Part shown: positions 8,800 to 32,592 of the stretch, one piece after another | Numbering within the stretch: position 1 is the stretch's first letter | Layout: the number at the start of each line of letters is the position of its first letter | DNA from: Thermodesulfobacteriota bacterium | GTDB taxonomy: Bacteria > Desulfobacterota > Desulfobacteria > Desulfobacterales > C00003060 | Assembly: GCA_034189385.1 (NCBI GenBank) | Contig: JAXHVD010000025.1 | Span: 1-63,100 of the forward strand | DNA: 63,100 bases | Reading direction: 5' to 3' | Made by a program: the position numbers and the translations under genes | Notes under the pieces: generated by a model | Told to the model about the DNA's origin: nothing | Databases searched by the model: none | Seen by the model: the letters and a program-made list of their open reading frames with translations, nothing else

Positions 8800-8812
8800 C
8801 TCTAATTACCAT

Positions 8813-9286: not shown

Positions 9287-9303
9287 GCTGGTTCCTCCTC
9301 AAC

Positions 9304-10651: not shown

Positions 10652-10672
10652 TTGATCTTCCTCACATTGGCT

Positions 10673-11344: not shown

Positions 11345-11381
11345 AAACCAGATCCTTGTTTCAACGAAGCGGGGTTTGAGT

Positions 11382-11599: not shown

Positions 11600-11605
11600 A
11601 CTCAT

Positions 11606-12694: not shown

Positions 12695-12762
12695 GCTTGT
12701 CGAAAACCCTCTAGATGATGAGGCCTGTGCAAAGAGACCTCTTTAAGGGCCCATTGTGGGTC

Positions 12763-13239: not shown

Positions 13240-13385
13240 TTTGTCGCCTCACTTGTCTTTGTGGTTTCCGAAGAAGTCATGTTGCGCACCATGAACGTTC
13301 GAAAGAATGATACGAAGGTCTCAAAGAGATGGTTTCTCAGAGGACGTTTCACGAGTTCATCAAAAGAAACTTGGGGAAAGGGCTC

Positions 13386-13865
13386 CTAGTCAGAATGGGT
13401 TTTGGTCACCTTGACGCCGGCAGCCTTTAGCATCTCTTCTGCCATGGGATCTGCGTAACCTTCCTTGTACTTTATTTCATGAATACCGGCATTAATCAAC
13501 ATCTTGGAACAGATAGCGCACGGGAGGTTCGTACAATAGAGGGTGCCGCCGGCGATACAAACACCATGGTAGGCAGCTTGAATAATGACATTTTGTTCGG
13601 CGTGAAGCCCGCGGCACAACTCATGACGTTCACCAGAAGGGATGTGAAGCTCCTCGCGCAGGCAGCCTATGTCAAGGCAATGAGGCAGTCCTGTCGGTGC
13701 CCCGTTGTAACCGGTTGCCAATATCCGTTTATCCCTGACCACGATAGCCCCTACCTGCCGACGGAGACAGGTAGATCTCCGTGCCACCAGGCAGGCAATG
13801 TCCATGAAATAGTCTTCCCACGACGGACGGCTCATCTGGGTGATCTCATCCTTTCTCTTCCCCAT
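13386..13865 (-). CDS. dCMP deaminase (ComEB-like)
   Basis: [32 protein letters not shown] and PCAIC motifs. Confidence 0.93.
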
Positions 13866-19589: not shown

Positions 19590-20399
19590 ATGGTACGCAA
19601 GCCGGCTGTAGCGGATATGTTCTATCCTGGCGACAGAAATAGCCTGACGGCGCAGCTAGAATCCTTTCTGAGGCCGGTGCCGGAGCCCAAAAGGGTCCTT
19701 GCTGCCATTTCTCCCCATGCGGGCTATATCTATTCCGGCGCCGTGGCTGGCGCCGTCTTCTCGCAGATTCGTGTCCCCCAGACAGTGGTCATCCTTGGTC
19801 CCAATCATAGGGGAATCGGCGCGGCTGTGGCTATCAATGCCTCCGGTGTCTGGGACACGCCATTGGGATCGGTCTCGATTAACGAGGGGCTTTCCAAGTC
19901 CATTCTCGAGGCCGGGCCTCACTGCAAGATCGACGATGATCCTCGGGCCCATGCCTTAGAACATTCCCTTGAAGTGCAGGTCCCCTTTCTTCAAATGGTG
20001 AGGCCTGACGTGACCATCGTCCCCATTGCCCTGTCCCACGTGCGTTACGAGGGGTGCCAGGAGATTGGCCTGGCCCTGGCAAAAGGGATCAAGGATTACG
20101 CAGACGATGTCCTTGTGGTGGCCAGCACAGACATGACGCACTACGAGTCAGAAAAGGTGGCCAGGGCCAATGACCAGGCGGCCATTGAGAGGATTCTGGA
20201 TTTGGACCCAAAGGGGCTCTACGACACGGTGGCCAAGAAGAAGATCTCCATGTGTGGGGTCATTCCCACAACGATTGCCCTCGTGGCGTGCAAGGCACTG
20301 GAGGCGACCAAGGCTGATTTGGTCCAGTATGCCACATCAGGAGACGTGACAGGCGACTATGCTCAGGTTGTGGGCTACGCTGGATTCATCGTCTATTAA
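19590..20399 (+). CDS. AmmeMemoRadiSam system protein B (MEMO1 family)
   Basis: RKPAVADMFYP, PHAGYIYSG, LGPNH, EHSLEVQVPFLQ, ASTDMTHY, ISMCG and VVGYAG motifs. Confidence 0.93.
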   Translation: MVRKPAVADMFYPGDRNSLTAQLESFLRPVPEPKRVLAAISPHAGYIYSGAVAGAVFSQIRVPQTVVILGPNHRGIGAAVAINASGVWDTPLGSVSINEGLSKSILEAGPHCKIDDDPRAHALEHSLEVQVPFLQMVRPDVTIVPIALSHVRYEGCQEIGLALAKGIKDYADDVLVVASTDMTHYESEKVARANDQAAIERILDLDPKGLYDTVAKKKISMCGVIPTTIALVACKALEATKADLVQYATSGDVTGDYAQVVGYAGFIVY

Positions 20400-20553
20400 T
20401 AAGGTTCAGAAGACACGGCAAGGGGGGCACCCCCTTTGTTCTTCTCCTTGACAGGGTCTCTTGCCTGTACTACTACTGTGGCAACTTGAAGCTTTATATG
20501 TTTTAAGATGTAACCATAGAGCTTGGCCGAGGGCCTTTCGGCTACCCACTTCT

Positions 20554-20627
20554 TGGGGGATCGTCTAGTGGTAGGACAGTGGACTCTGGATCCATTAGCG
20601 GGGGTTCGAATCCTCCTCCCCCAGCCA
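20554..20627 (+). tRNA. tRNA-Gln (anticodon CTG)
   Basis: Acceptor stem TGGGGGA/TCCCCCA, anticodon arm GTGGA-CT-CTG-GA-TCCAT, GGTTCGAATCC T-arm, encoded CCA. Confidence 0.95.
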
Positions 20628-20855
20628 AGCAATACCCCGTGCAGGCTTTTTCCCCTTGCCCTACCTGTGGGACCTTTTGTTGCAGATCCTTGCACAGCCC
20701 CTTGAAACGCCCTTTGTGATGTTTTGAGGGCACCCTGCCCGACGACGCAAACGCTATGCGGGTGTTTTCTTGTTGACATAGATCGTGTTTGATGCATTGC
20801 TTTGTGACCGTGCGTCCCCGTCGTGCCTGTCATGGCACAAGAGGGCTAACTTTTT

Positions 20856-21058
20856 AGTAACGTTTAAAAGTGTTGACGTAGTGGATTCCTGGACAACCAA
20901 CCTCAAGATAGGGATAATCGCTTCTCTTCGGCATCCAATGCCTTTAGGTAGCCTATGCCATTTGTGTAGATAGCAATGGCTGTATGCCGGCGTTCAGCGA
21001 TCATCCCTGTCTCTCTAACTGCTTGCTAAGGCCTTTACCTCAACTTTTGAACGTTACC
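20856..21058 (+). mobile_element. ~200-bp IS1-like MITE (family C), copy 1
   Basis: Terminal inverted repeats AGTAACGTTTAAAAG...CTTTTGAACGTTACC, flanked by the 8-bp direct repeat AACTTTTT; inverted homologue at 33130-33332. Confidence 0.75.
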
Positions 21059-21179
21059 AACTTTTTGGAGTACGTGGCTGTTGTGAGCAGTCCGCCCCGG
21101 CGGATGAAAAAGCGTATCATGGTCGCTTGAAGTTTATGCAAAGCGCTCGCGGGAAAATTAGGAAAGGAGAAAGAGGCTT

Positions 21180-22244
21180 TTGACAAGACATATGCTCAAG
21201 CTGGCAGGGCTGATCTACCTTTTGACGGCTGTGGGGTGTGTTGCCACCCGCACCCAGGTGCAAATGCCTCCCCAGAGAGCCGAGGACATAGAATTTGAGG
21301 TCATGAAAGAACTGGAACAGTTCAGGGGCAAGGTCAGGAGGGATTTGCGGGTCACTGCCGGCGGCTTTCGTGACAAGACCGGGCAGCACAAGGATTCGGT
21401 GAGAGCCCGCTATTCCAAGGCCGTGACCCAGGGTGGCGAAGAGTTGCTGTACCATATGCTTTACAGGGCCTTGGGACCAAGGGCAGTGGTGGACCGCCAA
21501 GTCGATACGTGGAACCGCTTGACGACGGAGTATCAATACAGCTGGGTGTCGCCGGCGGCAAAAAAACGGCACGCTGGTATCATCAAGCACGGCGGTCCCA
21601 GTGGCTGGCTCGTAGGGGCCAACTACTTGGTCACCGGGGCTGTGGTCTATTTTAATGAAGACCGTTATAGCGGCGGCGGCGGCATCAATGTGGACGGGGC
21701 CGGAGCACACTTTAGAAAGGTCTTTTCCCGCGTAGCCATTGAATTGCGGTTAGTGGATATGAACACGTCGGAAATTTGTTGGAGTGCCATGGTAGAGAGC
21801 TGGGTTTCTGGAACGGAGATCGGCATGGATCTGTTCCGTTTCATCACCGCCTGGGGGGATGAATACCTTGTGAGCGCAGAGGCGGGAAGGGCCCAGTATT
21901 TGCCGACGGACCACGCCCTTCAGGTCTGCATGGCAACTGCAGTGGTTGACATGATCAAGGAGAACCAAGCCCTCTTTATCGCCGGATATGGGGCTGGCAA
22001 AGAAAAGAGAATACCATCGACAAACCAGCCAAAGGAGCTCCACCAAAAGGAAAAGGGCGTGGAGGAAGCACGCCCCCTCCCACCGAACCCCGAAACGGCG
22101 GAGGGGCAGAGACCAAGAGGCAAAAACCAAGAGCCCAGCAACCCACAGAAGGCCGTTGAGGAGAGCGGGGCCAAAGAGCCTGAACAGAGGCAGACCCAGA
22201 AGCCCCATTGGCTCAAGCGGCCTGGGGCAGTGGGGGGGTGGTGA
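21180..22244 (+). CDS. CsgG/HfaB-family outer-membrane secretion lipoprotein with a low-complexity C-terminal tail
   Basis: Lipobox LTAVGC; FRDKTGQHK...YSKAVTQGG, ANYLVTGAVVYF...SGGGG and IELRLVDMNTSEI match CsgG family motifs. Confidence 0.8.
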   Translation: MTRHMLKLAGLIYLLTAVGCVATRTQVQMPPQRAEDIEFEVMKELEQFRGKVRRDLRVTAGGFRDKTGQHKDSVRARYSKAVTQGGEELLYHMLYRALGPRAVVDRQVDTWNRLTTEYQYSWVSPAAKKRHAGIIKHGGPSGWLVGANYLVTGAVVYFNEDRYSGGGGINVDGAGAHFRKVFSRVAIELRLVDMNTSEICWSAMVESWVSGTEIGMDLFRFITAWGDEYLVSAEAGRAQYLPTDHALQVCMATAVVDMIKENQALFIAGYGAGKEKRIPSTNQPKELHQKEKGVEEARPLPPNPETAEGQRPRGKNQEPSNPQKAVEESGAKEPEQRQTQKPHWLKRPGAVGGW

Positions 22245-22412
22245 ACAAGGGGCCAGCGGACATCAACCCCTCAAAAACCCTTTATCTCCAGCATCTTCTG
22301 CCTATTCTAAGGACACCCTCAAGGCTTTGGGCCATATGCGGTGTCCATGACCAGCCCAAAGCACAACATTTGCTAATTTAACGTAAATTATATTTAATTT
22401 AACATTATTTCG

Positions 22413-22440
22413 TTGACAAGTTCCCATTTAGTGGTATCTT
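22413..22440 (+). promoter_or_regulatory. Putative sigma70 promoter for 22588-23322
   Basis: TTGACA-16 nt-TATCTT with an extended -10 TG, preceded by an AT-rich tract. Confidence 0.55.
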
Positions 22441-22587
22441 AACGGTAACTGGGCTCAACCTGTGCACTGGGGTCGTCAGCAAGAGGGCGGCCCTAGGGGC
22501 GCTGTCGCGCCTTTGTGGCGACGGCAAAAAGAGCAGACAAAGGAGATGGATAGAGGCGTGAACTTTCTACTTCGCTGGGAGGATAAG

Positions 22588-23322
22588 ATGAAACAGGTGC
22601 GCGTGATGTGCTTTCTGTTTATGCTGATCTCTGCGTTTTTCTTATTGGTCCCTCATGGCACGTATGCCTTTGATGTGAATACCACCGTGACCAATGAAGG
22701 AAATCTGTCTGTTGACATGAGCGTCAAGGGGGCAAGTGCCCCAGATGGGGCTATTTCCCGGTTGGATCGCTACCGCTTTGAGCTTGACGGCCGCGACGGG
22801 ACAACGGCTCTCACCAACACCTATACACCGGAAACAGGACAAACCGGTGCCAGTATCGGTTATGTGGCAGACCCAGACTATGTATTGATGAGCGGAAAGC
22901 TTTCTGCGGACGAAGAGATAGGGGTCAACCATTCTAATTCAGATGTCTGTTGTGCCGGAGCAGCCAGCAGTTCTTTTGAAGTGGAAGAGCTGGTCTCTGA
23001 TTCTACGGGCAATTTCAATAACAGCAGCTATACCATCGAGGCCTCAGGTCGAACGGCAGATCTGGGAGGGTCATTCGGCGTTGGTGTGGCCGAAAACATG
23101 ACTACCCCGAACCCGGCTGTCTATGAACGGAACATCTACCAACTCAAGGGAGAAGGCGTGTTCAGCATCTCCGGCCAGTATGGTTTTGGCTGCGGAGATG
23201 TCGGTGCTGTTGCGCCCAACCCGTTTGCCGGCGTGGGCAGCACGATCAATGCCCACGGGCAGGGCACGGGGGGCGTGGATAGCGACATCGGCATTCACGG
23301 CCTCTGCTTTGATCAATTCTAG
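22588..23322 (+). CDS. Exported beta-rich protein, paralogue 1 of the putative sheath-like subunit
   Basis: GGAGG RBS before ATG 22588; signal peptide MKQVRVMCFLFMLISAFFLLVPHGTYA; acidic and G/S/T-rich; shares motif order with 23954-24835. Confidence 0.75.
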   Translation: MKQVRVMCFLFMLISAFFLLVPHGTYAFDVNTTVTNEGNLSVDMSVKGASAPDGAISRLDRYRFELDGRDGTTALTNTYTPETGQTGASIGYVADPDYVLMSGKLSADEEIGVNHSNSDVCCAGAASSSFEVEELVSDSTGNFNNSSYTIEASGRTADLGGSFGVGVAENMTTPNPAVYERNIYQLKGEGVFSISGQYGFGCGDVGAVAPNPFAGVGSTINAHGQGTGGVDSDIGIHGLCFDQF

Positions 23323-23542
23323 GCAGCTTGAAATTTGGTTGGGGGGTGCAGGGCGGCAGGCCCGTTGATGGACGTGAAGGAACCCAAGGGGCCGGTGCAA
23401 ATACTTATGGGGCTTGCGCTGAGATTCACAAAAGGCGACCCCATTTGTTAGTACTTTAATATTATTAGATAATTTGGGCTATGTCTGAGTCAAGAGCCAA
23501 AGGTTCTCAGAGGAGACTTTCCAGGCGGAGGCCAAAAAAGGG

Positions 23543-23768
23543 TTGACGGAATTTTTGGCCTATGATACGTGAAAACGCTAACTTACAAGGACGCAGAGGA
23601 GCCTTGTTTTTTGAAAAAAATAGTTGACAAGGTCTCTTCGCCTATGTATTAGCCTTTCTATTCTAAAGAAAATGCTTGACAAGGTTTCGGGGGCTGATTA
23701 TTTATCCCGATCTAACAGGACCTGTCGGGCAAAAAATCGTTGACAAAGCATCTGTGTATATGTATTAG
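23543..23768 (+). promoter_or_regulatory. Four tandem sigma70-like promoter motifs upstream of 23954
   Basis: TTGACG at 23543 and TTGACA at 23624, 23676 and 23740, each preceded by an A-tract. Two are followed at 17 nt by TG-TATTAG and one by TATTTA. Confidence 0.65.
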
Positions 23769-23953
23769 CGCATTGGTCGTGTAGAAAATTTGGGTAGAGA
23801 ATTTGGTTTTAAAATTTTTGACGAAAAGGGGGTGGTGAGCGGAGATCCAGCAAAGAGACCTTAGATTTGGGTCAGGTAAGTGTCTTAGGTAGTATGTAAC
23901 TTTTAACTAAATTTGGGTTAGACTTTTAAAAACGAAAAAGTGGAGGTAAGATC

Positions 23954-24835
23954 ATGCTTTCAAAGATGCGGATTGCGGCTATTGCAGCCATAGTAGTGAT
24001 GGGTTTTGTCGGATATGCCTTGGCAAGTCCCCCCGTTCCGCCCCCGGTAGAGGGTTTTGGAATCAGCACGAATGTGGACGTGGAGATGTCGTCAGGCGAT
24101 TTTACAGAAGTTGAGTCTTTTCAGTGGACATGGATGAACGATCCCGACGCCGTGGCAGGTAACGATGCTGACAGCAATTTGCACGGGCAAATGGTGCTTG
24201 GTCCCCAGGGCCGTGCGGCTGAGATCCGTTACACCGAGGAGATGCAGACCACAGATACGTCCTTTTTTCAGTTCAACAAGGACTTTGGCGCTGCTTCCGC
24301 TGGTGCTGACACAGCAGGTAACAACCTGAACGTATCAAAGAATTACGGGTATGTGGCTTCAGAAGCCAGCCTGATCGCCAATGCCTCAAACAAGGAAACA
24401 GTGGGCCTGAGCATCGTGGCTAACGGCGACAGCAGGGGCCTGAATGACATGCCGTCTCTGTGCCCCTGGGTGGCTGACTCGACTATCCCTGCAACGAATG
24501 AGTTTATCGCCATGGGAAGCGAGACCTCTACGACGAGCGTGATGGTCTCTGACACCGACACAGAGGCGCGGGCAACTGTAGCGCCTGAGCTGAACCACAG
24601 CATCCTAGCCCAAGGTATCGGTGTGGCCAAGGGCCTCATGAGACTCTCCTTGATGGAAGGTGACGCAGCCTACGATCCAGAAAATGACGAGGATCCACCT
24701 AACCTGATCAGCAAGACCAGGTACAGCGAGACGACCGTTGCTGCCGGTACCATCGACAAGTTCAGCAAGGGTATGAAGTATACTTCAACTCTGCCTGCAT
24801 GGCAGATGCCAGAGCCCTGGTACCAGCTTCAGTAA
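23954..24835 (+). CDS. Exported beta-rich protein, putative major subunit resembling the Methanospirillum-type sheath (amyloid-like) protein
   Basis: GGAGG RBS; signal peptide ending ALA; PPVPPPVEGFGIST N-terminus, central LCPW, C-terminal RYSETTVAAGTIDKFSKGMKYTS. The family resemblance is from recalled motifs, not from a search. Confidence 0.65.
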   Translation: MLSKMRIAAIAAIVVMGFVGYALASPPVPPPVEGFGISTNVDVEMSSGDFTEVESFQWTWMNDPDAVAGNDADSNLHGQMVLGPQGRAAEIRYTEEMQTTDTSFFQFNKDFGAASAGADTAGNNLNVSKNYGYVASEASLIANASNKETVGLSIVANGDSRGLNDMPSLCPWVADSTIPATNEFIAMGSETSTTSVMVSDTDTEARATVAPELNHSILAQGIGVAKGLMRLSLMEGDAAYDPENDEDPPNLISKTRYSETTVAAGTIDKFSKGMKYTSTLPAWQMPEPWYQLQ

Positions 24836-24866
24836 GAGGCTGACAGGCTCTATTTGATGTCCATCT

Positions 24867-24902
24867 AAAAGGGGGCGGAAATTATTTCCGCCCCCTTTTT
24901 TT
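24867..24902 (+). terminator. Intrinsic terminator after the putative major subunit
   Basis: AAAAGGGGGCGGAAA-TTA-TTTCCGCCCCC-TTTTTTT: perfect GC-rich stem followed by a U-tract. Confidence 0.9.
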
Positions 24903-24920
24903 CCCTGTAAGGAACAAATC

Positions 24921-25619
24921 ATGGCAACATTAAAGTCCATTGTTGCGCTTTGTGTGGTGGCCTTTTTGTGTTTTTCCGGCGGCTCTGCCCTTGCACAGGA
25001 TGAGGCCATGTGGCCCAGGCCGGCCCAGGACCTGTGGGAGACAGTGAACGCGGAATTTGTGGGCCCTTTTAATCTGGACCGCGACTATACGTACGAGTAC
25101 ACGGTGCCCGAGTCACTGGTAGAAACGTACACCCATTCCCTTGACGCCTCGGCCACAGACGGAAAGACCAGGATATTTGACGTCATGAGTGTGGTTGGTT
25201 CGTCGCAGGGGAGCCATTTTTGGACCTCTACGAATATGGGACATGACGATTTGGACACGGCAGCCCCCCTTAGTGCCAGCGAAAGGACGGCGGCCGGCAG
25301 ATGCCAGGTCTTTGACTATGACACCAGGGCGGGCTGCGGCGCCATCATGAACTCCGGTTTTGACGCAGACATCATGCGCGGGGCCGTTCATTCCAATACC
25401 TCCATGGAGCCAGGGTCCATGGGCTATCGTTTTTCGGCCAATGGAGAGGCCCAGGTCTCAGCCACGGCTGCCGCGGCCACGGCTTGTGGCGATAATGAAG
25501 GGATCTACAGCGAACAAGACTATCGCCAGAACATAACGGTGGCCGGCGACATCCAAAAGTTTGACTACATGGTGGATTTCTACGGCCAGCCCAACATGTT
25601 GTGCGGCACCTGGGATTAG
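24921..25619 (+). CDS. Exported beta-rich protein, paralogue 3 of the putative sheath-like subunit
   Basis: Signal peptide ending ALA; C-terminal QDYRQNITVAGDIQKFDYMVDF aligns by eye with TRYSETTVAAGTIDKFSKGMKY of 23954-24835. Confidence 0.75.
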   Translation: MATLKSIVALCVVAFLCFSGGSALAQDEAMWPRPAQDLWETVNAEFVGPFNLDRDYTYEYTVPESLVETYTHSLDASATDGKTRIFDVMSVVGSSQGSHFWTSTNMGHDDLDTAAPLSASERTAAGRCQVFDYDTRAGCGAIMNSGFDADIMRGAVHSNTSMEPGSMGYRFSANGEAQVSATAAAATACGDNEGIYSEQDYRQNITVAGDIQKFDYMVDFYGQPNMLCGTWD

Positions 25620-26198
25620 AAAGGGGTGCGCCAAACCTTCCATTGATGACGGGGCTTCCATGGAGGGTTGTCTCAGTTTTTCGTCTGGTTCCATGGTAGG
25701 CCTTTCTTTATTCCTTCTGTAGGTCCAGAGACTTTCCTCTCGTCTGAGAAACCTGTTCCCTCTGATTTTGGAAAAGGTGCTTAGGCGATCCTTGCCACAG
25801 GGTGACCATCACAGGCTATCACAGTCAACATCCTCATTCCCCTTGTAAGGGGTGTTCTTGTCTACTTTCTGGCCCTTATCCTGTTCAGGCAGCTTTCTGA
25901 ATAGTCCCATGAGGGAAGGGGTTACATCCCCCGATGGGTCAGCGCCTCCATCAGACAGATGTCCTTTCTTGCAGCCCTCCTGTTCATGGTTCATCCATTG
26001 CAGACACAGTCGTTGACGTAGATTATCCAGAGGATGAACAGCTTGGTTCTCTTTTCAAGCCCTTTGGGATCAAATCTGATTTGCCGACGGGCGCGCGGTT
26101 CTCACAGGGCCGTTGCCAAATCAAGCTCTTTATCCCCTTGACAGTCCCATGGAGCTGTTATTATGATACGGTCCTCAAATCAACTACTACCGGTGGCT

Positions 26199-26633
26199 AT
26201 GATGATGAAAGGGTCGATTCTATCATTTGCATTTTGGGTTCTATGTGCTTTCTTTGTTTGCACTGCTGGAGCCTCCGAATACGTGGAGCCGGACATGGAT
26301 TCAGAGCCCCAGGAGTTGACCGAGGAAGGTGCTGAAGCAGAAGATGACGACGATGAAGAGGCAGAGCCTGAACCAAGGCGAACCAGTCCCGGGCCGGTTG
26401 TTCCCCTTGATGTAAAATATGAGCTGGATAGGCAGCTCGAGGACACAGGGCTGGTGTTTTCGCCCTATGATCCAGGAGAAGTCCGGCCGTCGGACGGCCA
26501 GTACAGCACCTTTCCTCGGCCGGGGACCCCTTTTTTCTTTGTGGAAGATGAAGGAGGGGAAGACAAAGGAGATGACGAAGAAGATGACGGAGAAGATGAC
26601 GGAGAAAAGGAAGATGCACAAAGCGTTGATTAG
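26199..26633 (+). CDS. Exported, highly acidic low-complexity protein
   Basis: Signal-peptide-like MKGSILSFAFWVLCAFFVCTAGA followed by D/E-rich tracts flanking a short core; putative TTGACA promoter at 26138. Confidence 0.7.
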   Translation: MMMKGSILSFAFWVLCAFFVCTAGASEYVEPDMDSEPQELTEEGAEAEDDDDEEAEPEPRRTSPGPVVPLDVKYELDRQLEDTGLVFSPYDPGEVRPSDGQYSTFPRPGTPFFFVEDEGGEDKGDDEEDDGEDDGEKEDAQSVD

Positions 26634-26991
26634 CCTCATGGGCCTCTTTTTGCTCCTTTTAGGGCTGTGCCTGCCTGTTGGGGCGGAAGACTTAGTCTGG
26701 CAGCCCCGCACGCCTGCCGGCGGCGCTGGTATCGGAGACCCGGACTTCTACTTTCGCATGGCCGATGCCGCCAAGGAAGGCTCCGGAGGTCAGCAGATGA
26801 CCCAGACCTTTGACGGCCGTCTGTTGGGACGTGGTTTTTATGAAGTAAGCGATGATGGACAGGTGATCTATTATGATATGATGGGAAACAAGATGGACGT
26901 GGATCGTGTGGGGGCCATCCAGGATGACCCGGACAACCCCCCAAATGGAGTGGTCTATTATTCTGCGCCCATCCAGGTGATCACATATTAA
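26614..26991 (+). CDS. CsgF-like exported protein (start MHKALIS)
   Basis: Signal peptide followed by EDLVWQPRTPAGGAGIGDPDFYFRMADAAKE, matching the spacing of the CsgF mature N-terminus (L-V-aromatic-x-P-x-x-P-x-GG...A-x-A); 125 aa. Confidence 0.55.
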   Translation: MHKALISLMGLFLLLLGLCLPVGAEDLVWQPRTPAGGAGIGDPDFYFRMADAAKEGSGGQQMTQTFDGRLLGRGFYEVSDDGQVIYYDMMGNKMDVDRVGAIQDDPDNPPNGVVYYSAPIQVITY

Positions 26992-27082
26992 CAGCAAAAC
27001 AGCAGCATCGGTCGAAAATGGCCTCTCTTAGATAAGGGCCAGGAGAAAAAGGAAAGACCTCGCAAGAAAGGAAGGCTTTGTT

Positions 27083-27655
27083 TTGAAAAGATACCTGCCG
27101 TGGCCTATCTTGGTTTTTCTCTTAGTGGCGGCAACATCGTCATCCTATGGACAGGATGGTGCTTTCAACTTTTCTGGTCCCTGGGGCAATAGCGCCACGG
27201 GCTCAGGTGAGATCTTCTCCGATTTTGGCATGGACTATGGGGTGGACACCCTGTCTCGTCTCATGGACTTTGACGCAAGCCTGAGCCATTCTCTAGATCC
27301 TAATGATTTCTTTGACCGCTTTTTGCAGCCGACCGTCACGGAAGACCAGGAAGAAAAAGGCCTGCTATCCCCCTTTCATATCCTTGAAACGGAAAAAGAG
27401 ATGTCCTTCAAGGCGGAGCTGCTTTCAGGGACGGGACTCGGTGAGGTGGCTATTTCCTCCGACGGTGAGGTCTTGACCATCCAAGCGGAGAAGACGGAGA
27501 TGAAGGAAGCATCAGGGGACGATTACAGCCAAGGGGAGTGGACCCGTGAATCCTTTACCAGGATCACACCGCTGCCAGGAGAGGTGCAGGACAAGGAGCT
27601 GGTCACCACCTATGAGGACGGTGTTCTAACGGTGACCTTTCCAAAAAGCCAGTAA
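27083..27655 (+). CDS. Hsp20/alpha-crystallin domain protein with an N-terminal signal peptide
   Basis: C-terminal ILETEKEMSFKAEL...GEVLTIQAEK...SFTRITPLP...YEDGVLTVTFPK is an alpha-crystallin domain; N-terminus MKRYLPWPILVFLLVAATSSSYG resembles a Sec signal. Confidence 0.8.
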   Translation: MKRYLPWPILVFLLVAATSSSYGQDGAFNFSGPWGNSATGSGEIFSDFGMDYGVDTLSRLMDFDASLSHSLDPNDFFDRFLQPTVTEDQEEKGLLSPFHILETEKEMSFKAELLSGTGLGEVAISSDGEVLTIQAEKTEMKEASGDDYSQGEWTRESFTRITPLPGEVQDKELVTTYEDGVLTVTFPKSQ

Positions 27656-27690
27656 CAAGATTATAAGTCCCAGGAGATAGGAGAGCGCAA

Positions 27691-28218
27691 ATGGAGCAGG
27701 TGCTCCTATTGAATGCCACCTTTGAGCCGTTGAAGGTGATCGACTGGAAGAGGGCCATAAGACTGCTCACATTGGGAAAGGTGGAGGTGCTGGAGGAATA
27801 CGACCGGGAAATCCGGTCCGTAACCTTTGCCGTCAAACTCCCGTCTGTGCTTCGCCTCCTCAGGTTCGTTCGGTACCGGAAAAGGGATATCAAGTTTTCT
27901 AGACTCAATATCTATGCTCGAGATGGGTTTCGGTGCCAGTACTGTGGGCAGAAGTTTGAATCTCAGGACCTGACCTTTGACCACGTCGTACCAAAGAGAT
28001 ACGGCGGCAAAACGGAATGGACCAACATCGTGACGTCCTGCTACAGATGTAACAGGACCAAGGGTGGGGGCTCGCTGAAAGAGGCCGGTTTCAAGCTCCT
28101 GAGAAAGCCTAAGAAGCCGGACTGGGTGCCTTTCATCATGATTACCATCGGTGTCAGGAGTGTCCCTGATTCTTGGCGCGATTACCTGTACTGGAATGTG
28201 GAGTTGGAAGAGACGTAG
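27691..28218 (+). CDS. HNH endonuclease (McrA-like family)
   Basis: VLLLNATFEPL, RDGFRCQYCG, LTFDHVVP..YGG, WTNIVTSCYRCN..KG. Confidence 0.92.
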   Translation: MEQVLLLNATFEPLKVIDWKRAIRLLTLGKVEVLEEYDREIRSVTFAVKLPSVLRLLRFVRYRKRDIKFSRLNIYARDGFRCQYCGQKFESQDLTFDHVVPKRYGGKTEWTNIVTSCYRCNRTKGGGSLKEAGFKLLRKPKKPDWVPFIMITIGVRSVPDSWRDYLYWNVELEET

Positions 28219-29773
28219 TGAGACGGCCCCAACCGCCCCCGCCAGGCGTGTGAATCACAATCCCTTCGCCTTTTTTGGCACGAAAAGTACAACGTCCCGG
28301 CAGTGTTGTTTCCGTGCCGTCTACACCTTTGAGTGTATTTAACCCCCTCCTTCCATTATCCCCGCCGCCGGCCCCTTTTGGGGGAAAACGCCTTCTCTCC
28401 GACTGAATAGAGACCACTGCATCTTCAAGGAGCAGGAACTCCCGGGTAATGCCCATGCCCCCGGAATGGGCGCCTGCGCCACCGGAACCGTCTCTAAGGG
28501 CTGTCTTCACGACCCGAATGGGATAGGCAGTCTCCAGGGCCTCAGTCGGGGTGTTGGCCGTGTTGGTCATATGTGTCTGCACGGCACTGGCCCCGTCTGA
28601 TTGAGGGGTTGCGCCCATGCCTCCTGCAATGGTTTCGTAATAGGTTTTTCCCTGCCAGCCGATGGCAAGGTTGTTCATCGTGCCCTGCCCTTGGGCCGGG
28701 ATCTGGTCGGGCAGGAGATCTGTCAGTGCCAGCAGGAGCGCATCAACGATCCGCTGGGAGGTTTCCACGTTACCAGAACTGACCGCTGCTGGCGGGTGGG
28801 GGTTGAGAAGAGAGCCTTCAGGGGCGATGACGCCGACACTCTCATAACACCCGTGGTTTGGTGGGATGTCAGGCGGTAGAAGGCATCTGAGGACGTAGTA
28901 GACGGCGGAGCGTGTCACACTAAGGGGGGTGTTGGCATTTCCCTTACTTTGGGGCGCCGTGCCTGTAAAATCTGCTACAAACCGTGATCCCCTGATCTCT
29001 ACCCGCACGGTAATGGCCAGGGGGGTGTCGTCTCCGTCCAGATAGTCCGTGGCTTCTGCCGCGCCTTCAGGCAGGGCTGAAAGGTGGGCAGACACCCTTT
29101 TGCCGGAGTATTGGATGATGGCCTCTACAAACCCGTCAAATGCCGCTTCGCCATAACGACCTATAAAGTCCATGCACCTAGAGACCCCCAGGCGGTTGGC
29201 CCCCACTTGGGCATTTAGGTCGCCGATCCGTTCAACGGGGTTTCTTGTTTCATCTTCAAAGCGCTTAAGGACGTCTCTTTGCAGGATGTCATGGTGCACA
29301 AAGAGGGTGGGAGGAATGACGATGCCTTCCTCGAAAAGGGTGCTACTCATCCCTGGCATGGAGCCGGGCGTGGTGCCACCCACGTCTGCATGATGGGCAC
29401 GGTTGACCGCATAACCCTTGAGCTTCTCTTTCCAGAAAAAGGGTGCAATGACAGTGATGTCCGGCAGATGGGATCCGCCCCGGTAGGGGTCATTCACGAT
29501 GACCTGATCTCCAGGCTCCAGTCTTGGGAAATCACTTGCCACGGCCTTTACAGCAGACGGCATGGCCCCTAGGTGCACGGGAATGTGCTCGGCCTGAGCA
29601 ATGAGTCGCCCGCTTTCGTCAAATAAGGCGCAGCTTTCGTCCAGACGCTCCTTAATATTAGGAGAAAAGGCTGTCCGCCTCAGATTTCCACCCATCTCCT
29701 CTGGGATGGCCAAGACGAGGTGCTTGAACACCTCAAGGGTCACGGGATCAATGATGGTCACTGTGAACCTCAA
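28154..29773 (-). CDS. Hydantoinase B / 5-oxoprolinase family subunit
   Basis: RTAFSPNIKERLD, HIPVHLG, NDPYRGGSHLPD, QGTMNN and TPGGGGWG motifs. Confidence 0.93.
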   Translation of the reverse strand: MRFTVTIIDPVTLEVFKHLVLAIPEEMGGNLRRTAFSPNIKERLDESCALFDESGRLIAQAEHIPVHLGAMPSAVKAVASDFPRLEPGDQVIVNDPYRGGSHLPDITVIAPFFWKEKLKGYAVNRAHHADVGGTTPGSMPGMSSTLFEEGIVIPPTLFVHHDILQRDVLKRFEDETRNPVERIGDLNAQVGANRLGVSRCMDFIGRYGEAAFDGFVEAIIQYSGKRVSAHLSALPEGAAEATDYLDGDDTPLAITVRVEIRGSRFVADFTGTAPQSKGNANTPLSVTRSAVYYVLRCLLPPDIPPNHGCYESVGVIAPEGSLLNPHPPAAVSSGNVETSQRIVDALLLALTDLLPDQIPAQGQGTMNNLAIGWQGKTYYETIAGGMGATPQSDGASAVQTHMTNTANTPTEALETAYPIRVVKTALRDGSGGAGAHSGGMGITREFLLLEDAVVSIQSERRRFPPKGAGGGDNGRRGLNTLKGVDGTETTLPGRCTFRAKKGEGIVIHTPGGGGWGRLTTSLPTPHSSTGNRAKNQGHS

Positions 29774-31730
29774 TGCTCAGACAACTGCTTTTTGCCATAG
29801 AGACCTCACAGTCTGGAGACACAAACACGGTGCATCCCTCGTCTTCAATGATCGCCGGCCCCTGTGCATGAAAAGAGGCGCCCAACTGTCTTCGCTGGTA
29901 CACTGGTGTCCCTTGCCAGCCCGAAGAAAGCAAGACCCTTCTTGTCGTCACAAGAGCCGAAGAAGTGGTCTCGCCTGGTTCCGGCAGGGGGATCTGTTGT
30001 CTTGAGGCAAGGGCGGAAAGGCGCACTGCCACCACCTCCACACCATGCCCTTTGTCCAGGGCGTATCCATAGCGCGCGCTGAAGGCCTGGTGAAATCTTT
30101 CCTTCATGTCAGCGTCCTTGCTGTAGGCCACTGGAAGATGAAAACTCTGCCCCTCGTAGCGCAGATCCAGGGCTGGCCTGAGGTGCCTATCCCTATGGTG
30201 GAAACCTTGGCGGGCCAGAGATTTCAGGGCCCTGTCCTTAAACCGATCCAAGATTCCGTCCACCATCCTTTGGGTTTCAGCGTTCCATCTGGCAAGGAGG
30301 CTCTCTCCAAAGTCAAGCCTTACGTCTGAGAGGAGAATCCCCAAAGCGGAAAACATCCCCGCCATAGGAGGAACAAGGACCTCTCTCACGCCAAGTTCTC
30401 TGGCAAGGTCTGTGGCATGGAGAGGACCAGCGCCACCAAAGGCAAGAAGGGTACAATCTCTCACATCGATCCCTTTTTCCACCGTAGCCCTGCGAATCCC
30501 CCTGAGCATATTGGCATTGACCACGGAACGAATGCCCAGGATGGCCTCTTCCAAGGTGATGCCAGCCGATGCTGCAAGAGACGAAAGGGCTTGCCTGGCC
30601 CTGTTCCGATGGAGGGTAATGGTGGTGCCAGAGAAAGTGTCCCCGTCTAAGAGCCCTGATAGAAGGTTCGCGTCCGTCACGGTTGGTAAGGTCCCGCCCC
30701 GACCGTAGCAAGCTGGGCCAGGATCTGCGCCCGCGCTTTGGGGCCCCACGCGCAACGCGCCGCCTTTGTCCGTCCAGGCAATGGAGCCGCCGCCGGCCCC
30801 AATGGTCGTAATGTCGAGAATGGGGAGTCGTATGGGCAGGCCGTCTATGTCTCCTTCATCGGTCCACAGGGGGGTGTCGTTGACAATTGCCGAGAAGTCG
30901 GCACTCGTACCGCCCATGTCAAAAGTTGCCAAGTTCCGTCGTTCCAGACGACTTCCGAGCAGAACGCCTCCAGAGACCCCTCCGGCTGGACCTGATAGGA
31001 CCAGCTCTACAGGTTGGACCTCACCAGATGCCGCCACCCCGCCTCCTGACTTCATGATGTAGTAATCAGGAGGTCCTTCTGACGCCCTGATAGCCTTGCC
31101 TATTTTCTCTGTGTAGGAACGGACAATAGGATGGAGAAAGGCATTGATGGTCGTAGTGGAGGCCCTTTCAAACTCCCTGAATTCGGGAATGACCTGAGAC
31201 GACCTCGAGACAGAAAGCCCCTTTTTCTTGAATGCCTTTTCTAAAAGGATTTCGTGGGAAGAATTCTTGTAGGAAAAGAGCAGACAGATGGCTGCACTTA
31301 CTGCCCCGGTCTTTACGATGTCATCGGCCACGGCGTCAGCATGGGTTCTGGTCAAGGGCGTGATGACCGAACCATCCGGGGCAAGGCGCTCGTCTACCTC
31401 AAAACACAAGGTGCGACTCACCAGCGGGTGTGGTCGCGTGCAGTCAAAGTCATAGAGCCTCGGTCTTTTTTGCCTGGCGATGTAAAGCAGGTCCTTGAAG
31501 CCCTTGGTCGTCACGAGGGCCACTTTGGCCCCCTTTCTTTCAAGGAGCGCATTGGTGGCCACAGTTGTTCCGTGAGAAAAGGATGAAATGCCTGAAAGGG
31601 CTCTTATGGTTTCTGTGACGGCGCGCTCAGGGCACTGGGGTGTAGAAAGGACCTTCCAGCCGCAAATGCCTTGCTGATCAACGGTTACGACATCCGTGAA
31701 GGTTCCGCCAATGTCAGTAGCTACTCTCAT
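29748..31730 (-). CDS. Hydantoinase A / 5-oxoprolinase family subunit
   Basis: DIGGTFTD, HGTTVATNALLE, SGPAGGV, DMGGTS, GAGGGS and AFGGAGPLH motifs. Confidence 0.93.
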   Translation of the reverse strand: MRVATDIGGTFTDVVTVDQQGICGWKVLSTPQCPERAVTETIRALSGISSFSHGTTVATNALLERKGAKVALVTTKGFKDLLYIARQKRPRLYDFDCTRPHPLVSRTLCFEVDERLAPDGSVITPLTRTHADAVADDIVKTGAVSAAICLLFSYKNSSHEILLEKAFKKKGLSVSRSSQVIPEFREFERASTTTINAFLHPIVRSYTEKIGKAIRASEGPPDYYIMKSGGGVAASGEVQPVELVLSGPAGGVSGGVLLGSRLERRNLATFDMGGTSADFSAIVNDTPLWTDEGDIDGLPIRLPILDITTIGAGGGSIAWTDKGGALRVGPQSAGADPGPACYGRGGTLPTVTDANLLSGLLDGDTFSGTTITLHRNRARQALSSLAASAGITLEEAILGIRSVVNANMLRGIRRATVEKGIDVRDCTLLAFGGAGPLHATDLARELGVREVLVPPMAGMFSALGILLSDVRLDFGESLLARWNAETQRMVDGILDRFKDRALKSLARQGFHHRDRHLRPALDLRYEGQSFHLPVAYSKDADMKERFHQAFSARYGYALDKGHGVEVVAVRLSALASRQQIPLPEPGETTSSALVTTRRVLLSSGWQGTPVYQRRQLGASFHAQGPAIIEDEGCTVFVSPDCEVSMAKSSCLSIEVHSDHH

Positions 31731-31770: not shown

Positions 31771-32592
31771 CTAGAGATTCGCAACAATCTGGCAGAAGGG
31801 CTCTGAGCCCGACAAGGCCTCGAGACTCTGCCAAATCCATTTTTCTTTGTGGGCCTCAAGGGTAATAATCGGCCTCAGACGATTCTCTCCCACGTACCGG
31901 AAAAGGGTGTCAAAATCGATGTTGCCGGCCCCAATGGCCAGGTGATCATCCCGGATACCGTGGTTGTCATGGATGTGCAATTCTTTCACAAAAGGCCCCA
32001 GGTCGTCCAGCCAACCCTTGAGGTTGGTCTCAGAAAAGGCATTCATGTGGCCCGCATCAAAACAAAACCCCACCTTTTTTGTATTCAACCCTTTGATGAG
32101 CCTGAGAAGCATGGCAGGGGTTCTTTCATAGACATTCTCGAGCATCAGAGTCGTTTTCGTGCCTTGAAGGCCCTTCACGAGGGGCGCCCATGTCTCCAGG
32201 GCTGTCTCAAGCCACAGGTCTTTGTTATCATTGTATCTCTTCCTGTCATAGCCTGTATGACAGACCATAGAGGCGGGCTCAAAGAGGGGGATGAGGTCAA
32301 AGGCTTGTCTAAGACGTTCTCGGGTTGCTTTCAGTATCTTCTTATCCATGGCACCTGGTGCCAGGTCATAGAAAGGGCCATGGAGGGTGATAGAAAGGCC
32401 CTCGTGATGCAAGAGAGAGGCCATTTCTGAAAGCGCCTTCCTTGTATGTGTGTCTATGACCTTTCCGTTGATACCGATTTCAGGATTGATTCTTTTATCC
32501 AGTACCAAGGGCAGGTACTTTTCTTTCAGGAGTCTGAAGGGGATACAAATCTGGACCCTTCTTAGGATGGCGGGATCAAAGAGGGCCTTCAT
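31771..32592 (-). CDS. Sugar phosphate isomerase/epimerase (AP-endonuclease-2-type TIM barrel)
   Basis: LHGPF.DL, LENVYE, CFDAGH, HIHDNHG..DDHL..G.GNIDF and TLE motifs. Confidence 0.88.
   Translation of the reverse strand: MKALFDPAILRRVQICIPFRLLKEKYLPLVLDKRINPEIGINGKVIDTHTRKALSEMASLLHHEGLSITLHGPFYDLAPGAMDKKILKATRERLRQAFDLIPLFEPASMVCHTGYDRKRYNDNKDLWLETALETWAPLVKGLQGTKTTLMLENVYERTPAMLLRLIKGLNTKKVGFCFDAGHMNAFSETNLKGWLDDLGPFVKELHIHDNHGIRDDHLAIGAGNIDFDTLFRYVGENRLRPIITLEAHKEKWIWQSLEALSGSEPFCQIVANL

Follow-up and report, generated by a model that had tools for sequence, protein, structure and literature searches.

A bacterial homologue of the archaeal sheath protein SH/MspA, encoded beside a CsgG-like gene in a Thermodesulfobacteriota genome

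Organization of the locus

The stretch analysed here, a 63,100-nucleotide contig of a Thermodesulfobacteriota genome (the window), carries a gene whose product resembles the archaeal sheath protein SH/MspA and is called SH-like below. This gene belongs to a seven-gene block bounded by a tRNA-Gln gene and an HNH endonuclease gene (Table 1). The HNH gene occurs in all five genus-mates searched, at 83-85% identity, and in one genus-mate, G399, a 90% identical tRNA-Gln also lies left of the block. The 12 kb upstream of the HNH gene in G387, G436 and G395 contain neither block parts nor the tRNA-Gln. Among the nine ORFs scanned against Pfam between 19590 and 28218, no integrase family appears.

Table 1. 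Features of the SH-like gene block and its borders in the window
Feature	Position	Strand	Basis or remark
tRNA-Gln (CTG), left border	20554..20627	+	ARAGORN; Rfam RF00005, 62.5 bits
CsgG-like outer-membrane lipoprotein, 354 aa, proposed export channel	21180..22244	+	Pfam PF03783
p286, secreted 244-aa protein	22588..23322	+	ORF listed from 22462; start 22588 likely
Three tandem 39-nt promoter-like repeats	23615..23769	+	In the 630-nt gap 5' of the SH-like gene
SH-like subunit gene	23954..24835	+	ATG start, 293 aa, sole ORF there
p232, secreted 232-aa partner protein	24921..25619	+	Kept in four bacterial block copies
p156, small acidic protein, N-terminal hydrophobic segment	26163..26633	+	G399, L157, L158 at 38-82% identity
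p190a, small protein, hydrophobic N-terminal segment	26419..26991	+	G399, L157, L158 at 31-79% identity
Hsp20/alpha-crystallin protein, proposed periplasmic holdase	27083..27655	+	PF00011, E 4.7e-10, residues 101-189
HNH endonuclease gene, right border, core gene outside the block	27691..28218	+	PF01844, E 2.4e-15

The first gene of the block encodes a CsgG-like protein that matches its Pfam family at E 7e-20 (71.7 bits; cut-off 20.8). A phmmer search aligns its residues 51-260 with the E. coli CsgG structures 3x2r and 4uv3 (E 2e-10), and the N-terminal LTAVGC reads by eye as a lipobox. The gene is present once in the window's genome. With 41.7 bits against the NCBIfam CsgG equivalog, whose cut-off is 505, the protein does not qualify as an E. 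coli CsgG equivalog.

The remaining members are less familiar. p286 is kept in all four block copies (54-88% identity in G399 and in the metagenome contigs L157 and L158) and matches no Pfam family; the window's genome holds one paralog, on contig C14. p156 reaches no Pfam family at its cut-off, and p190a has no Pfam match either; its frame overlaps p156, and its true start is probably near 26587. The Hsp20-like protein is kept in the four block copies and begins with MKRYLPWPILVFLLVAATSSSYG, by eye a signal peptide, which suggests a periplasmic chaperone.

The SH-like gene and its product

The ATG of the SH-like gene follows a GGAGG ribosome-binding site at a distance of 8 nt. The three promoter-like repeats farther upstream follow the pattern AAAAAAT..TTGACAAGG...TATGTATTAGC at spacings of 52 and 64 nt. 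The 293-aa translation contains every motif that had been quoted from the DNA by an earlier, sequence-only reading, and in the order given there: ASPPVPPPVEGFGISTNVDV, TEVESFQWT, YTEEMQT...FNKDF, NNLNVSKNYGYV, SLCPW...IPATNEFIAMGS, LNHSILAQG and RYSETTVAAGTIDKFSKGMKYTS. The same reading proposed a signal peptide and an alternating beta-strand pattern, and both agree with what we find. By eye, the hydrophobic N-terminus MLSKMRIAAIAAIVVMGFVGYALA, which ends in ALA just before SPP, looks like a Sec signal peptide cleaved at A-L-A, and it is kept in 58 of 58 aligned relatives. The AlphaFold2 model (pLDDT 76) places a helix at residues 2-20 and then ten long strands. The subunit is laid out as a signal peptide, an ASPPVPPP segment, a ten-strand beta core with Cys170, which is invariant in all 58 aligned sequences, and a C-terminal IP....PEPWY tail.

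Database searches return 130 proteins at E <= 0.001, with identities of 40-98% among the best 120 of the 130, and an alignment of 58 relatives has 34 invariant columns. The matches and these columns together show that the ORF is a conserved gene rather than a chance frame. Pfam and NCBIfam hold no family for it, the best row being DUF2544 at E 0.11, under its cut-off. Searched against the PDB by sequence, the single protein yields a chance row (E 0.34) and the profile nothing at E <= 10. ESM Atlas was set aside as a source of leads: the best feature score, 0.83, falls under the 0.9 lead level, and its neighbours, porin clusters, reach a TM of at most 0.44 against a poor Atlas model (pLDDT 0.26).

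Distribution and copy number

Within the genus, 37 genomes were compared, and only the window's own and G399 carry SH-like genes (2 of 37, or 1 of 36 genus-mates); among 300 other genomes of the phylum, one carries the family. A strong CsgG-like match is found in the same two of the 37 genomes, and the G399 ortholog is 59% identical and shares one contig with an SH-like gene. The entire block is kept in G399 and in L157 and L158, two of the 27 metagenome loci that span 3 kb or more; the block partners are absent from the other 25.

Copy number is high where the family occurs. The window's genome has six full-length SH-like copies plus a half copy and two short remnants, and G399 has three copies. 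Only one of the six full-length copies lies beside the CsgG-like gene; the other five are solo and scattered over the genome, in housekeeping neighbourhoods that are kept across related contigs. Near these five, tblastn finds no CsgG-like, p286, p232, p156, p190a or Hsp20-like gene.

Homology to the archaeal sheath protein SH/MspA

The sequence-only reading proposed, ahead of any computation, a likeness to the sheath proteins of Methanomicrobiales. Profile methods now supply the computation. Three alignments were compared: the bacterial SH-like family (A1), SH of Methanoregulaceae (A2) and the Methanospirillum MspA family headed by Mhun_2271 (A3), a protein that the available text of PMC6242892 and PMC11641113 names as the sheath protein of M. 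hungatei. In hhalign, A1 matches A2 at 99.2% (E 2e-19, 286 columns) and A3 at 97.9% (E 3.5e-13, 249 columns), and A2 matches A3 at 99.9% (E 3.8e-32). Controls made from reversed columns and 15 column shuffles each of A2 and A3 give at most 3.6% (E 0.012). It is very improbable that the ten-strand product is an outer-membrane beta-barrel, a porin or similar, whose sheath likeness comes only from long amphipathic strands.

HMM searches point the same way. The A1 HMM finds the Methanoregulaceae protein HTY14158.1 at E 2.1e-9 among 1.84 billion representatives and, in four genomes of Methanomicrobiales, gives 29, 51, 30 and 14 matching places. In the reverse direction, the A2 HMM hits eight places in the window's genome, all within the six SH-like genes (best E 2.6e-6), and the A3 HMM finds no match there at E <= 1. 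BLASTP between the SH-like protein and Mhun_2271 is weak, with 24% identity over 183 aa and E 0.038 for a single comparison. The link to MspA itself therefore runs through the profile-profile comparison and the Methanoregulaceae bridge.

The motifs that the earlier reading listed for the archaeal proteins (E-x-x-G-I-x-T, LCPF, LNY-x-I and YSE...ASG.I..F.K.M.Y.S) are near-literal in the Methanoregulaceae consensus (PEIQGLxTxT, ILCPFA, VLNYNINA, YSETSTASGLIxxFSKSMSYQS) and less literal in Mhun_2271, whose counterparts are PENQIFTIDT, IRCVFA, LNYQIAV and WKDTASVTGGIKNFQKTFNYES. When 22 sequences are aligned with L-INS-i, they stay collinear from the signal peptide through the C-terminal motif. 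By sequence comparison, then, the product is a true homologue of SH/MspA, and this homology implies transfer or shared ancestry between the domains, as the earlier reading had anticipated.

Both the SH-like protein and SH/MspA (Mhun_2271, WP_011449234.1, of M. hungatei JF-1, and Methanomicrobiales paralogs) have a signal peptide, which excerpts of PMC11576556 describe as a key SH feature for export, and share motif order and predicted strand order. The AlphaFold2 strands of the bacterial model and of Mhun_2271 (pLDDT 81) correspond one to one in order through the hhalign alignment; the data availability statement of the cryoET paper PMC10593813, as excerpted, gives EMDB maps only. Each model also carries a Cys in a corresponding low-confidence loop (164-174 in the bacterial protein, 247-257 in Mhun_2271). 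Cys170 lies opposite MspA C257, the first archaeal Cys, in the 22-sequence alignment and via A2, and opposite C271 in the direct A1-A3 hhalign, a pairing that varies with the alignment. Many paralogs per genome are a further shared trait.

The differences are equally clear. The SH-like protein is bacterial and cap-less, has 293 aa against 377, and is only about 24% identical to MspA; it has one conserved Cys where SH/MspA has two, the second being absent. The cap (about 74-168), which makes ring-to-ring contacts in M. hungatei, is the sole extra part of the MspA model, and its bacterial counterpart, residues 63-86, is a short loop with no insert. Unlike MspA, the bacterial protein has the SPPVPPP N-terminus and the additional IP....PEPWY C-terminal tail, and its gene is part of an operon-like block that includes a CsgG-like gene; the available report text places Mhun_2271 outside any operon. 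Cap-less relatives of about 266-276 aa are present in Methanolinea and Methanoregulaceae, and the published SH family includes a cap-less form too, the Thermoprotei SH without additional domains in excerpts of PMC11576556.

Two neighbours were compared with the same alignments. p286 can be set aside as an SH relative (at most 1.1% against A1-A3). p232 aligns with A1 at 19.6% (E 0.0012), with its C-terminal Y......AG.I.KF motif in register, but their kinship is a lead only because this value is little above the best shuffled control.

ANME-1-type relatives and probable transfer between domains

The earlier reading likened the protein to the Methanospirillum-type sheath protein. This kinship stands, with two qualifications: among the archaeal relatives found, ANME-1-type proteins come nearest, and the MspA cap insert of roughly 100 residues is missing. 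The A1 HMM matches the ANME-1-type proteins at E 1e-44 to 1e-58, and tblastn of the window protein against their genes reaches E 2e-38 with 35% identity over 292 aa, in an identity range of 27-36%. Two of the archaeal genomes (G514, G570) were assigned to ANME-1 by McrA against PDB 3SQG, and four (G456, G612, G676, G693) by sequence likeness only.

These proteins form the subtype closest to the bacterial one. They share the ASPPVPxP N-terminus, a CPW/CVW motif and an IP....P..YP.F C-terminal tail, and they are likewise cap-less (284-342 aa), although richer in Cys. A p232 homolog lies directly 3' of the SH-like gene in four of the six ANME-1-type loci (tblastn E 7e-29 to 1e-22), as in the bacterium, and hhalign relates p232 to its archaeal homologs at 99.9% (E 3e-33). 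Judged from these comparisons, p232 was inherited together with the SH-like gene. Otherwise the loci differ: the archaeal ones adjoin proteasome, exosome and TFE genes and lack the CsgG-like, p286, p156, p190a and Hsp20-like genes.

In the tree, the named bacterial sequences form their own clade, separate from the ANME-1-type sequences at 99; the bacterial-side clade has 43 rows, 31 of them without organism assignment. Because the tree has no root, the direction can be judged from distribution only. On that basis, the SH-like and p232 genes most likely came by interdomain transfer from archaea to bacteria. The supplement of PMC11576556, which uses its own identifiers, does not list the accessions of four archaeal relatives or WP_011449234, and its 'Alkanophagales_sheath' HMM shows no obvious common motif by eye over consensus states 11-35.

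ANME-1 archaea form tight consortia with sulfate reducers, and both partners take part in anaerobic methane oxidation. Such closeness raises the question of whether archaeal DNA was misbinned or misassembled into a bacterial genome, so that no bacterial homologue would exist. The assembly consists of 64 contigs at 90% completeness and 4% contamination, and the restriction of the family to two genomes of the genus would fit such an error as well. We nevertheless regard it as extremely improbable. The gene lies mid-contig, amid bacterial genes and next to a lipoprotein gene of a diderm family, inside a tRNA-HNH frame of bacterial type, with 83-90% conservation in genus-mates. The block recurs with the same flanks in G399 and in two independent metagenome contigs, and the solo copies have conserved housekeeping surroundings. 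Block GC is 0.50-0.54, like that of the window, against 0.44-0.47 in the archaeal loci. The named bacterial sequences also keep apart from the ANME-1-type clade, and 13 NCBI records from two Thermodesulfobacteriota MAGs are family members.

Predicted self-assembly

The sequence-only reading suggested predicting a homo-oligomer. Three copies of residues 25-293 join head to tail in ESMFold2 with a score of 0.73, against 0.00 for the best control; at least 90% of contacts agree between runs, and partner pLDDT is 76. In calibration, 20 of 30 proteins whose solved structure is a pair of one chain came up to the 0.73 mark, as did 1 of 23 whose structure is a single chain; these counts are only rough because the calibration used two copies and its own alignments. 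The SH-like subunits are thus predicted to self-associate head to tail.

The modelled interface pairs residues 251-281 with 30-63, including K269 with E44. Excerpts of PMC10593813 propose an inter-subunit salt bridge K363-D43 in MspA, and K269 and E44 align at or beside these two residues in the A1-A3 hhalign. In SH/MspA, the C-terminal G.I..F.K...Y.S strand is proposed to contact the N-terminal hairpin of the neighbouring subunit, and the same is predicted for the bacterial protein. The parts best conserved between the domains, the N-terminal hairpin and the C-terminal strand, are those of the predicted interface.

Conservation of this surface could also serve a protein that is a true SH homologue yet makes no polymer of its own, one that docks on or mimics the sheath of an archaeal partner through strand contact, or has an adhesin-like, non-structural role. 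The nearest relatives belong to ANME-1, a group known to partner with sulfate-reducing bacteria; only a few species have the family, as an accessory trait; and bacteria have been observed inside ANME-1 sheaths (PMC11576556, in excerpt). We hold this to be improbable all the same. Identity to the ANME-1 proteins is only 27-36%, and the DNA runs that contain this stretch are marine, marine-sediment and wetland metagenomes. Six paralogs, a dedicated export block and the strong homo-oligomer prediction fit a self-made polymer more simply than docking.

Proposed export and assembly pathway

The CsgG family belongs to diderm bacteria, and in curli its channel exports CsgA. As in type VIII curli of E. 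coli, the block links a CsgG-family lipoprotein gene to the gene of a secreted beta-rich subunit, here with predicted self-association, and the logic may be shared as well, with the subunit unfolded in the periplasm and the polymer outside. The SH-like subunit, however, lacks curlin repeats and is no relative of CsgA, and the CsgG-like protein carries a 90-residue charged tail. Curli has its own chaperones; the block has a secreted Hsp20-like protein in that place. The CsgA, CsgB, CsgC, CsgE and CsgF families are missing from the block, and a curlin/CsgE/CsgF Pfam scan of the nine ORFs in 19590-28218 finds none at E <= 1. With neither curlin nor Csg accessory families, the block is no curli operon, although it may work like one. 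CsgG-dependent export of the SH-like subunit is suggested by association, from a linkage present in only four related loci.

We consider it probable that the product is a Sec-exported, cap-less SH/MspA member of the ANME-1 subtype, transferred together with p232, that acts as a CsgG-exported, self-polymerising surface subunit. The host lineage is a sulfate-reducer-type branch of Thermodesulfobacteriota, and the block would add what a two-membrane cell needs, a CsgG-like channel and a secreted Hsp20-like protein. Cleavage after ALA would expose the conserved SPPVPPP end. In the periplasm, the subunit would be kept unpolymerised, possibly by the Hsp20-like protein, and it may then cross the outer membrane through the CsgG-like channel in the manner of CsgA, as linkage and co-occurrence suggest. 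Outside, the C-terminal strand 251-281 is predicted to extend the sheet of the next subunit's N-terminal hairpin 30-63, head to tail, a contact that has likewise been proposed for the sheath rings of M. hungatei. The invariant Cys170 may cross-link rows. A tough surface polymer of beta-sheets would result, in the form of a fibre, ribbon, layer or closed sheath. The sheath of M. hungatei is disassembled by DTT/NaOH (PMC6242892).

Implications

To our knowledge, the proteinaceous SH/MspA sheath has so far been treated as an archaeal invention. In the literature that we searched, no paper reports a bacterial SH member or a CsgG link, and the excerpted text of a 2024 survey (PMC11576556) says that a structural homologue of SH was not found in Bacteria. 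A diversified bacterial SH branch would extend this polymer's range to diderm cells and would be a specific example of genes for a surface structure passing as a pair between ANME-1-like archaea and sulfate-reducer-type bacteria. It would also suggest that CsgG channels export non-curlin subunits too. A short, cap-less, single-Cys subunit should be easier than MspA to express and study, and the assembly mechanism of sheath proteins becomes directly testable in bacterial hosts.

A bolder version would have the bacterium take the sheath subunit and its partner gene from ANME-1-like archaea, reroute them through CsgG and the Hsp20-like protein, and build an archaeal-style hoop or sheath outside its outer membrane, where bacterial and archaeal subunits might even join. 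This remains speculative and on balance unlikely. If true, mixed joining of subunits would physically couple syntrophic partners.

Possible transcription and environmental occurrence

The region 23830-25066 is covered by contigs of two metatranscriptome libraries, drawn from two studies; their likeness is at least 90%, and several show 0-2 differences. They are weakly suggestive of transcription of this region, as DNA can be present in such libraries. The rest of 21100-27700 is represented by only four short RNA-library contigs (149-151 nt; in p286 and p156/p190a), and contigs of this kind cannot rank expression, nor do the gaps between them prove anything. Among the metagenomes, the wetland runs have word shares of 0.05-0.15 and cover parts of the stretch at 90-99% likeness, a level that points to relatives other than this strain.

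A bacterial family related to the archaeal sheath protein

The SH-like gene in the window, named after the archaeal sheath protein (SH; MspA in Methanospirillum hungatei), is a conserved gene. Its 293-aa reading frame opens with ATG, preceded by a GGAGG ribosome-binding site. Among 3483 candidate proteins, 130 are related to it at E ≤ 0.001, the best 120 of these sharing 40-98% identity, and 34 columns are invariant in the 58-sequence family alignment (A1). An organism is named for 13 of the 120 listed relatives; all belong to two MAGs labelled 'Thermodesulfobacteriota bacterium', both of them rich in paralogs. No family in Pfam or NCBIfam was matched by the protein.

Seven strings quoted in an earlier sequence-only reading all occur in the translation in the order described, and the signal peptide it proposed is recognizable by eye as a Sec-like N-terminus ending ALA/SPPVPPP. 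Its alternating strands reappear in an AlphaFold2 model built from the 58 sequences (mean pLDDT 76.1, pTM 0.72) as a helix at residues 2-20 followed by ten long strands. The ESM Atlas holds the exact sequence with a very poor model (pTM 0.17, pLDDT 0.26), and structural surveys using such precomputed models would overlook the family.

In the 630-nt gap upstream, a 39-nt repeat occurs three times in tandem at spacings of 52 and 64 nt; every copy includes a TTGACA box and a TATGTATTAGC-like end. No such array precedes the genome's other five SH-like copies, each of which has no more than one TTGACA box in its 450 upstream nt. Metatranscriptome contigs from two libraries of two studies cover the gene at ≥ 90% likeness, which fits an expressed gene, although such contigs say nothing about level, ends or strand, and RNA libraries may contain DNA.

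The resemblance to Methanomicrobiales sheath proteins proposed in that reading is borne out by profile comparison. Searching 1.84 billion representatives with the A1 profile returned 235 proteins at E ≤ 0.001, including P0235 (E 2.1e-9), a 377-aa protein of a Methanoregulaceae archaeon whose relatives form a large, multi-copy archaeal family. In hhalign, A1 matches a 29-sequence alignment of these relatives (A2) at 99.2% (E 2e-19, 286 columns), nearly end to end in both proteins. MspA itself, the experimentally proven protein, was reached from related genomes through a Methanospirillum genome, whose 370-aa relative, used as query, led to P0485, a 377-aa protein titled 'Mhun_2271 [Methanospirillum hungatei JF-1]'. 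PMC6242892 and PMC11641113 identify Mhun_2271 as the sheath protein of M. hungatei. A second 29-sequence alignment headed by Mhun_2271 (A3) matches A1 at 97.9% (E 3.5e-13, 249 columns) and A2 at 99.9% (E 3.8e-32), while controls with the columns of A2 and A3 reversed or shuffled 15 times reached at most 3.6% and E 0.012. Four Methanomicrobiales genomes contain 29, 51, 30, and 14 places matched by the A1 HMM (best E 1.8e-14), and the reverse search of the window's genome with the A2 HMM finds eight, all within the six SH-like genes (best E 2.6e-6). The A3 HMM alone has no match in the window's genome at E ≤ 1, which counts against the link. A single pairwise BLASTP with Mhun_2271 (24% identity over 183 aa, E 0.038) also counts against the link. 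On the profile evidence, the window protein is related to the ring-polymerising archaeal sheath protein.

A published survey (PMC11576556) applied Foldseek to UniProt50 and HMMs to archaeal genomes, and stated that there was 'no structural homologue of SH-proteins in Bacteria'. The negative A3 search and the weak BLASTP match are the probable reason why it did not pick up this family. Our literature search, with subscription literature and bioRxiv supplements outside its scope, found no published report of a bacterial SH homologue or of a link to CsgG. The protein would be a bacterial, cap-less variant within the known SH family, apparently coupled to a type VIII-like export channel.

Aligned with L-INS-i, 22 sequences from the bacterial, intermediate, and archaeal groups are collinear from end to end. 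They share, in order, a signal peptide; A[SD]..VP..E.G..T with the first hairpin and a W at its end; a Y[TS]E strand; an N[LF].V.K strand; a Cys loop; IPA..N...GS; LN[HY].I; an EG/EA strand; and the C-terminal Y.E...A.G.I..F.K...Y.S strand. Cys170 of the bacterial protein is invariant in all 58 sequences of A1. Its counterpart depends on the alignment: L-INS-i places Cys170 on the first archaeal cysteine, MspA C257, and the direct A1-A3 hhalign places it on C271. By strand order, the AlphaFold2 model of Mhun_2271 (pLDDT 80.8) has the same succession as the bacterial model, with a low-confidence Cys loop at 247-257 corresponding to 164-174. Unlike the bacterial protein, MspA carries an extra helical cap at about 74-168. 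An outer-membrane barrel is a very improbable reading of these strands; the protein's matches to barrels are weak, and it is collinear with homologs from organisms that have no outer membrane.

A gene block shared with few relatives

Seven genes form a block between tRNA-Gln and an HNH gene, with the SH-like gene in third place. The whole block, tRNA included, recurs in the genus-mate G399, and the block recurs on metagenome contigs L157 and L158, two of 27 compared loci of at least 3 kb. SH-like genes occur in two of 37 genomes of the genus, and the same two carry a strong CsgG-like ortholog; in two further genomes, other CsgG-family genes match weakly and in part. The window's genome has one copy of the CsgG-like gene; its five other full-length SH-like genes (contigs C64, C6, C49, C34, and C20) stand alone in housekeeping neighbourhoods conserved on related contigs.

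Features of the block, its surroundings, and related loci (positions in the window unless a contig or locus is named; G000, the window's genome)
Feature	Position	Strand	Description
tRNA-Gln	20554-20627		block border
Block gene 1			CsgG-like lipoprotein; PF03783 E 7e-20; PDB CsgG E 2e-10 over 51-260
Block gene 2, p286			secreted 244-aa protein of unknown family
Tandem repeats	23615-23769		upstream of SH-like gene
Metatranscriptome cover	23830-25066		
Block gene 3, SH-like gene	23954-24835	+	
Block gene 4, p232			secreted, 232 aa
Block genes 5 and 6, p156 and p190a			small proteins
Block gene 7			Hsp20 protein, signal-like N-terminus; PF00011 E 4.7e-10
HNH gene	27691-28218		right border; core to genus
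Two large ORFs	28154-31730	-	539 and 660 aa, right of HNH gene
Start of shared region	28227/28374		~71% identity counterpart right of HNH gene in genus-mates G387 and G436
Region with G399 homolog	31783-32568		homolog directly follows HNH gene in G399, which thus has neither large ORF
Partial SH-like copy	G000 C2:104607-105002	-	C-terminal half, profile positions 167-297, 214-aa open frame
SH-like remnant	G000 C20:48143-48214	+	24-35 residues
SH-like remnant	G000 C2:7375-7479	-	24-35 residues
PilZ-domain gene	C64:112248-112694 (L001:2960-3406)	-	149 aa; PF07238 E 4e-15
SH-like match in G291	G291:C186:2850-3200		136-aa open frame with a C-terminal piece (profile positions 168-295); E 2.6e-10
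ANME-1-type gene set	L207 (G514:C4) 6481-13613		likewise L208, L209, L211

In four of six archaeal loci, the SH-like gene is immediately followed by a p232 homolog (tblastn E 7e-29 to 1e-22; hhalign 99.9%, E 3e-33), and none of the other five block proteins matches the six loci at E ≤ 0.01. The SH-p232 pair therefore looks like a transferred unit, to which the CsgG-like channel and the Hsp20-like protein would be bacterial additions. In addition, p232 may be a remote, shorter SH relative, a kinship not established by its hhalign match to A1 (19.6%, E 0.0012, C-terminal motif in register).

Separately, a PilZ-domain gene lies convergently about 540 nt downstream of the C64 copy and recurs at L165, L172, L175, and L185, for a total of five of 27 compared loci. 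A c-di-GMP link is possible, and the five may be one orthologous locus in related genomes.

ANME-1-type relatives and the direction of transfer

The A1 profile matches 12 of 301 genomes of the archaeal phylum that includes Methanomicrobiales at E ≤ 1e-12. Seven of the 12 give full-length matches at 1e-44 to 1e-58, whereas Methanomicrobiales are far weaker (1e-14 to 1e-17). In two such genomes, McrA scores 1141 and 1250 bits against PDB 3SQG, given as the ANME-1 enzyme in PMC11411713, and every other MCR scores ≤ 691 bits; the other genomes with such full-length matches are labelled ANME-1-type from sequence likeness only. The loci are archaeal; their contigs also carry proteasome alpha, SBDS, RNase PH (exosome), and TFIIE-alpha genes, and their GC is 0.44-0.47. 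Even plain tblastn with the window protein reaches the SH-like proteins there at up to E 2e-38, and these are the closest archaeal relatives found. The ANME-1-type and bacterial proteins share an ASPPVP.P start, a CPW/CVW motif, and an IP....P..[YW]P C-terminal tail that Methanomicrobiales SH proteins lack.

The ANME-1-type loci have a conserved gene set that adjoins a proteasome-exosome gene group and looks like a dedicated sheath locus. It comprises genes for a 505-aa protein and, on the opposite strand, a secreted 226-aa protein, then the SH-like gene (with a second one in two genomes), a p232-like gene, and a gene for a 451-aa CARDB/DUF11 protein anchored in the membrane at its C-terminus.

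Two trees were computed with IQ-TREE in 'quick' mode from rows chosen among 584 proteins, with SH-aLRT as the only support. In the 109-row tree, the 16 named bacterial rows and the 22 named Methanomicrobiales rows lie without exception on opposite sides of one split (99). With ANME-1-type rows added, the unrooted 82-row tree splits (98) into 28 rows, 14 of them named Methanomicrobiales including Mhun_2271 and 14 unnamed, and 54 rows, in which eight ANME-1-type rows branch first and a clade of 43 (99) unites all 12 named bacterial rows with 31 of no known organism. Being unrooted, the tree does not give the direction of transfer that the sequence-only reading suggested seeking in a phylogeny. 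Transfer from archaea to bacteria is favoured, though not proven, by distribution: the survey names four archaeal orders with SH proteins (PMC11576556), against a match in one of 300 other genomes of the bacterial phylum and one of 36 others of the genus. That archaeal DNA was mis-binned into a bacterial genome is very unlikely: the flanking genes are bacterial, a CsgG-family gene is a neighbour, the block exists in four independent copies, the GC matches, and the bacterial sequences form a separate clade.

The sole match in the 300 phylum genomes, in G291, belongs to a different family of the phylum. Certain 'intermediate' groups from the A1 search (proteins P0171, P0176, P0180, P0191, P0198, P0208, P0214, and P0226) branch between the Methanomicrobiales and ANME-1/bacterial sides; they have an A[SG].P..P..ET start and two cysteines (CPF...C) without the C-terminal tail, and P0198 has a Cys-rich insert.

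Proposed export and assembly

ANME-1 archaea live with sulfate reducers, which makes a non-structural or partner-docking role the most interesting alternative, albeit an unlikely one. As a structural subunit, the preferred reading, the protein would be exported by Sec, held in the periplasm, perhaps by the Hsp20-like protein, and passed through the outer membrane by the CsgG-like channel, as in curli. Assembly outside the cell would then proceed by sheet extension, possibly with cross-linking through Cys170.

The homo-oligomer prediction proposed earlier gives head-to-tail docking of three copies of residues 25-293 with a score of 0.73, against 0.00 for the best control. In calibration, 20 of 30 proteins solved as one-chain pairs attained this mark, as did one of 23 solved as single chains; since that calibration was run on two copies with different alignments, the counts apply here only roughly. 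The runs share at least 90% of contacts, and the partner's pLDDT is 76. In the predicted interface, the C-terminal strand (251-281) meets the N-terminal hairpin (30-63), and K269-E44 is among its best-defined contacts. In the A1-A3 hhalign, E44 corresponds to MspA D43 and K269 is adjacent to the position of MspA K363, the pair proposed to bridge adjacent ring subunits (PMC10593813).
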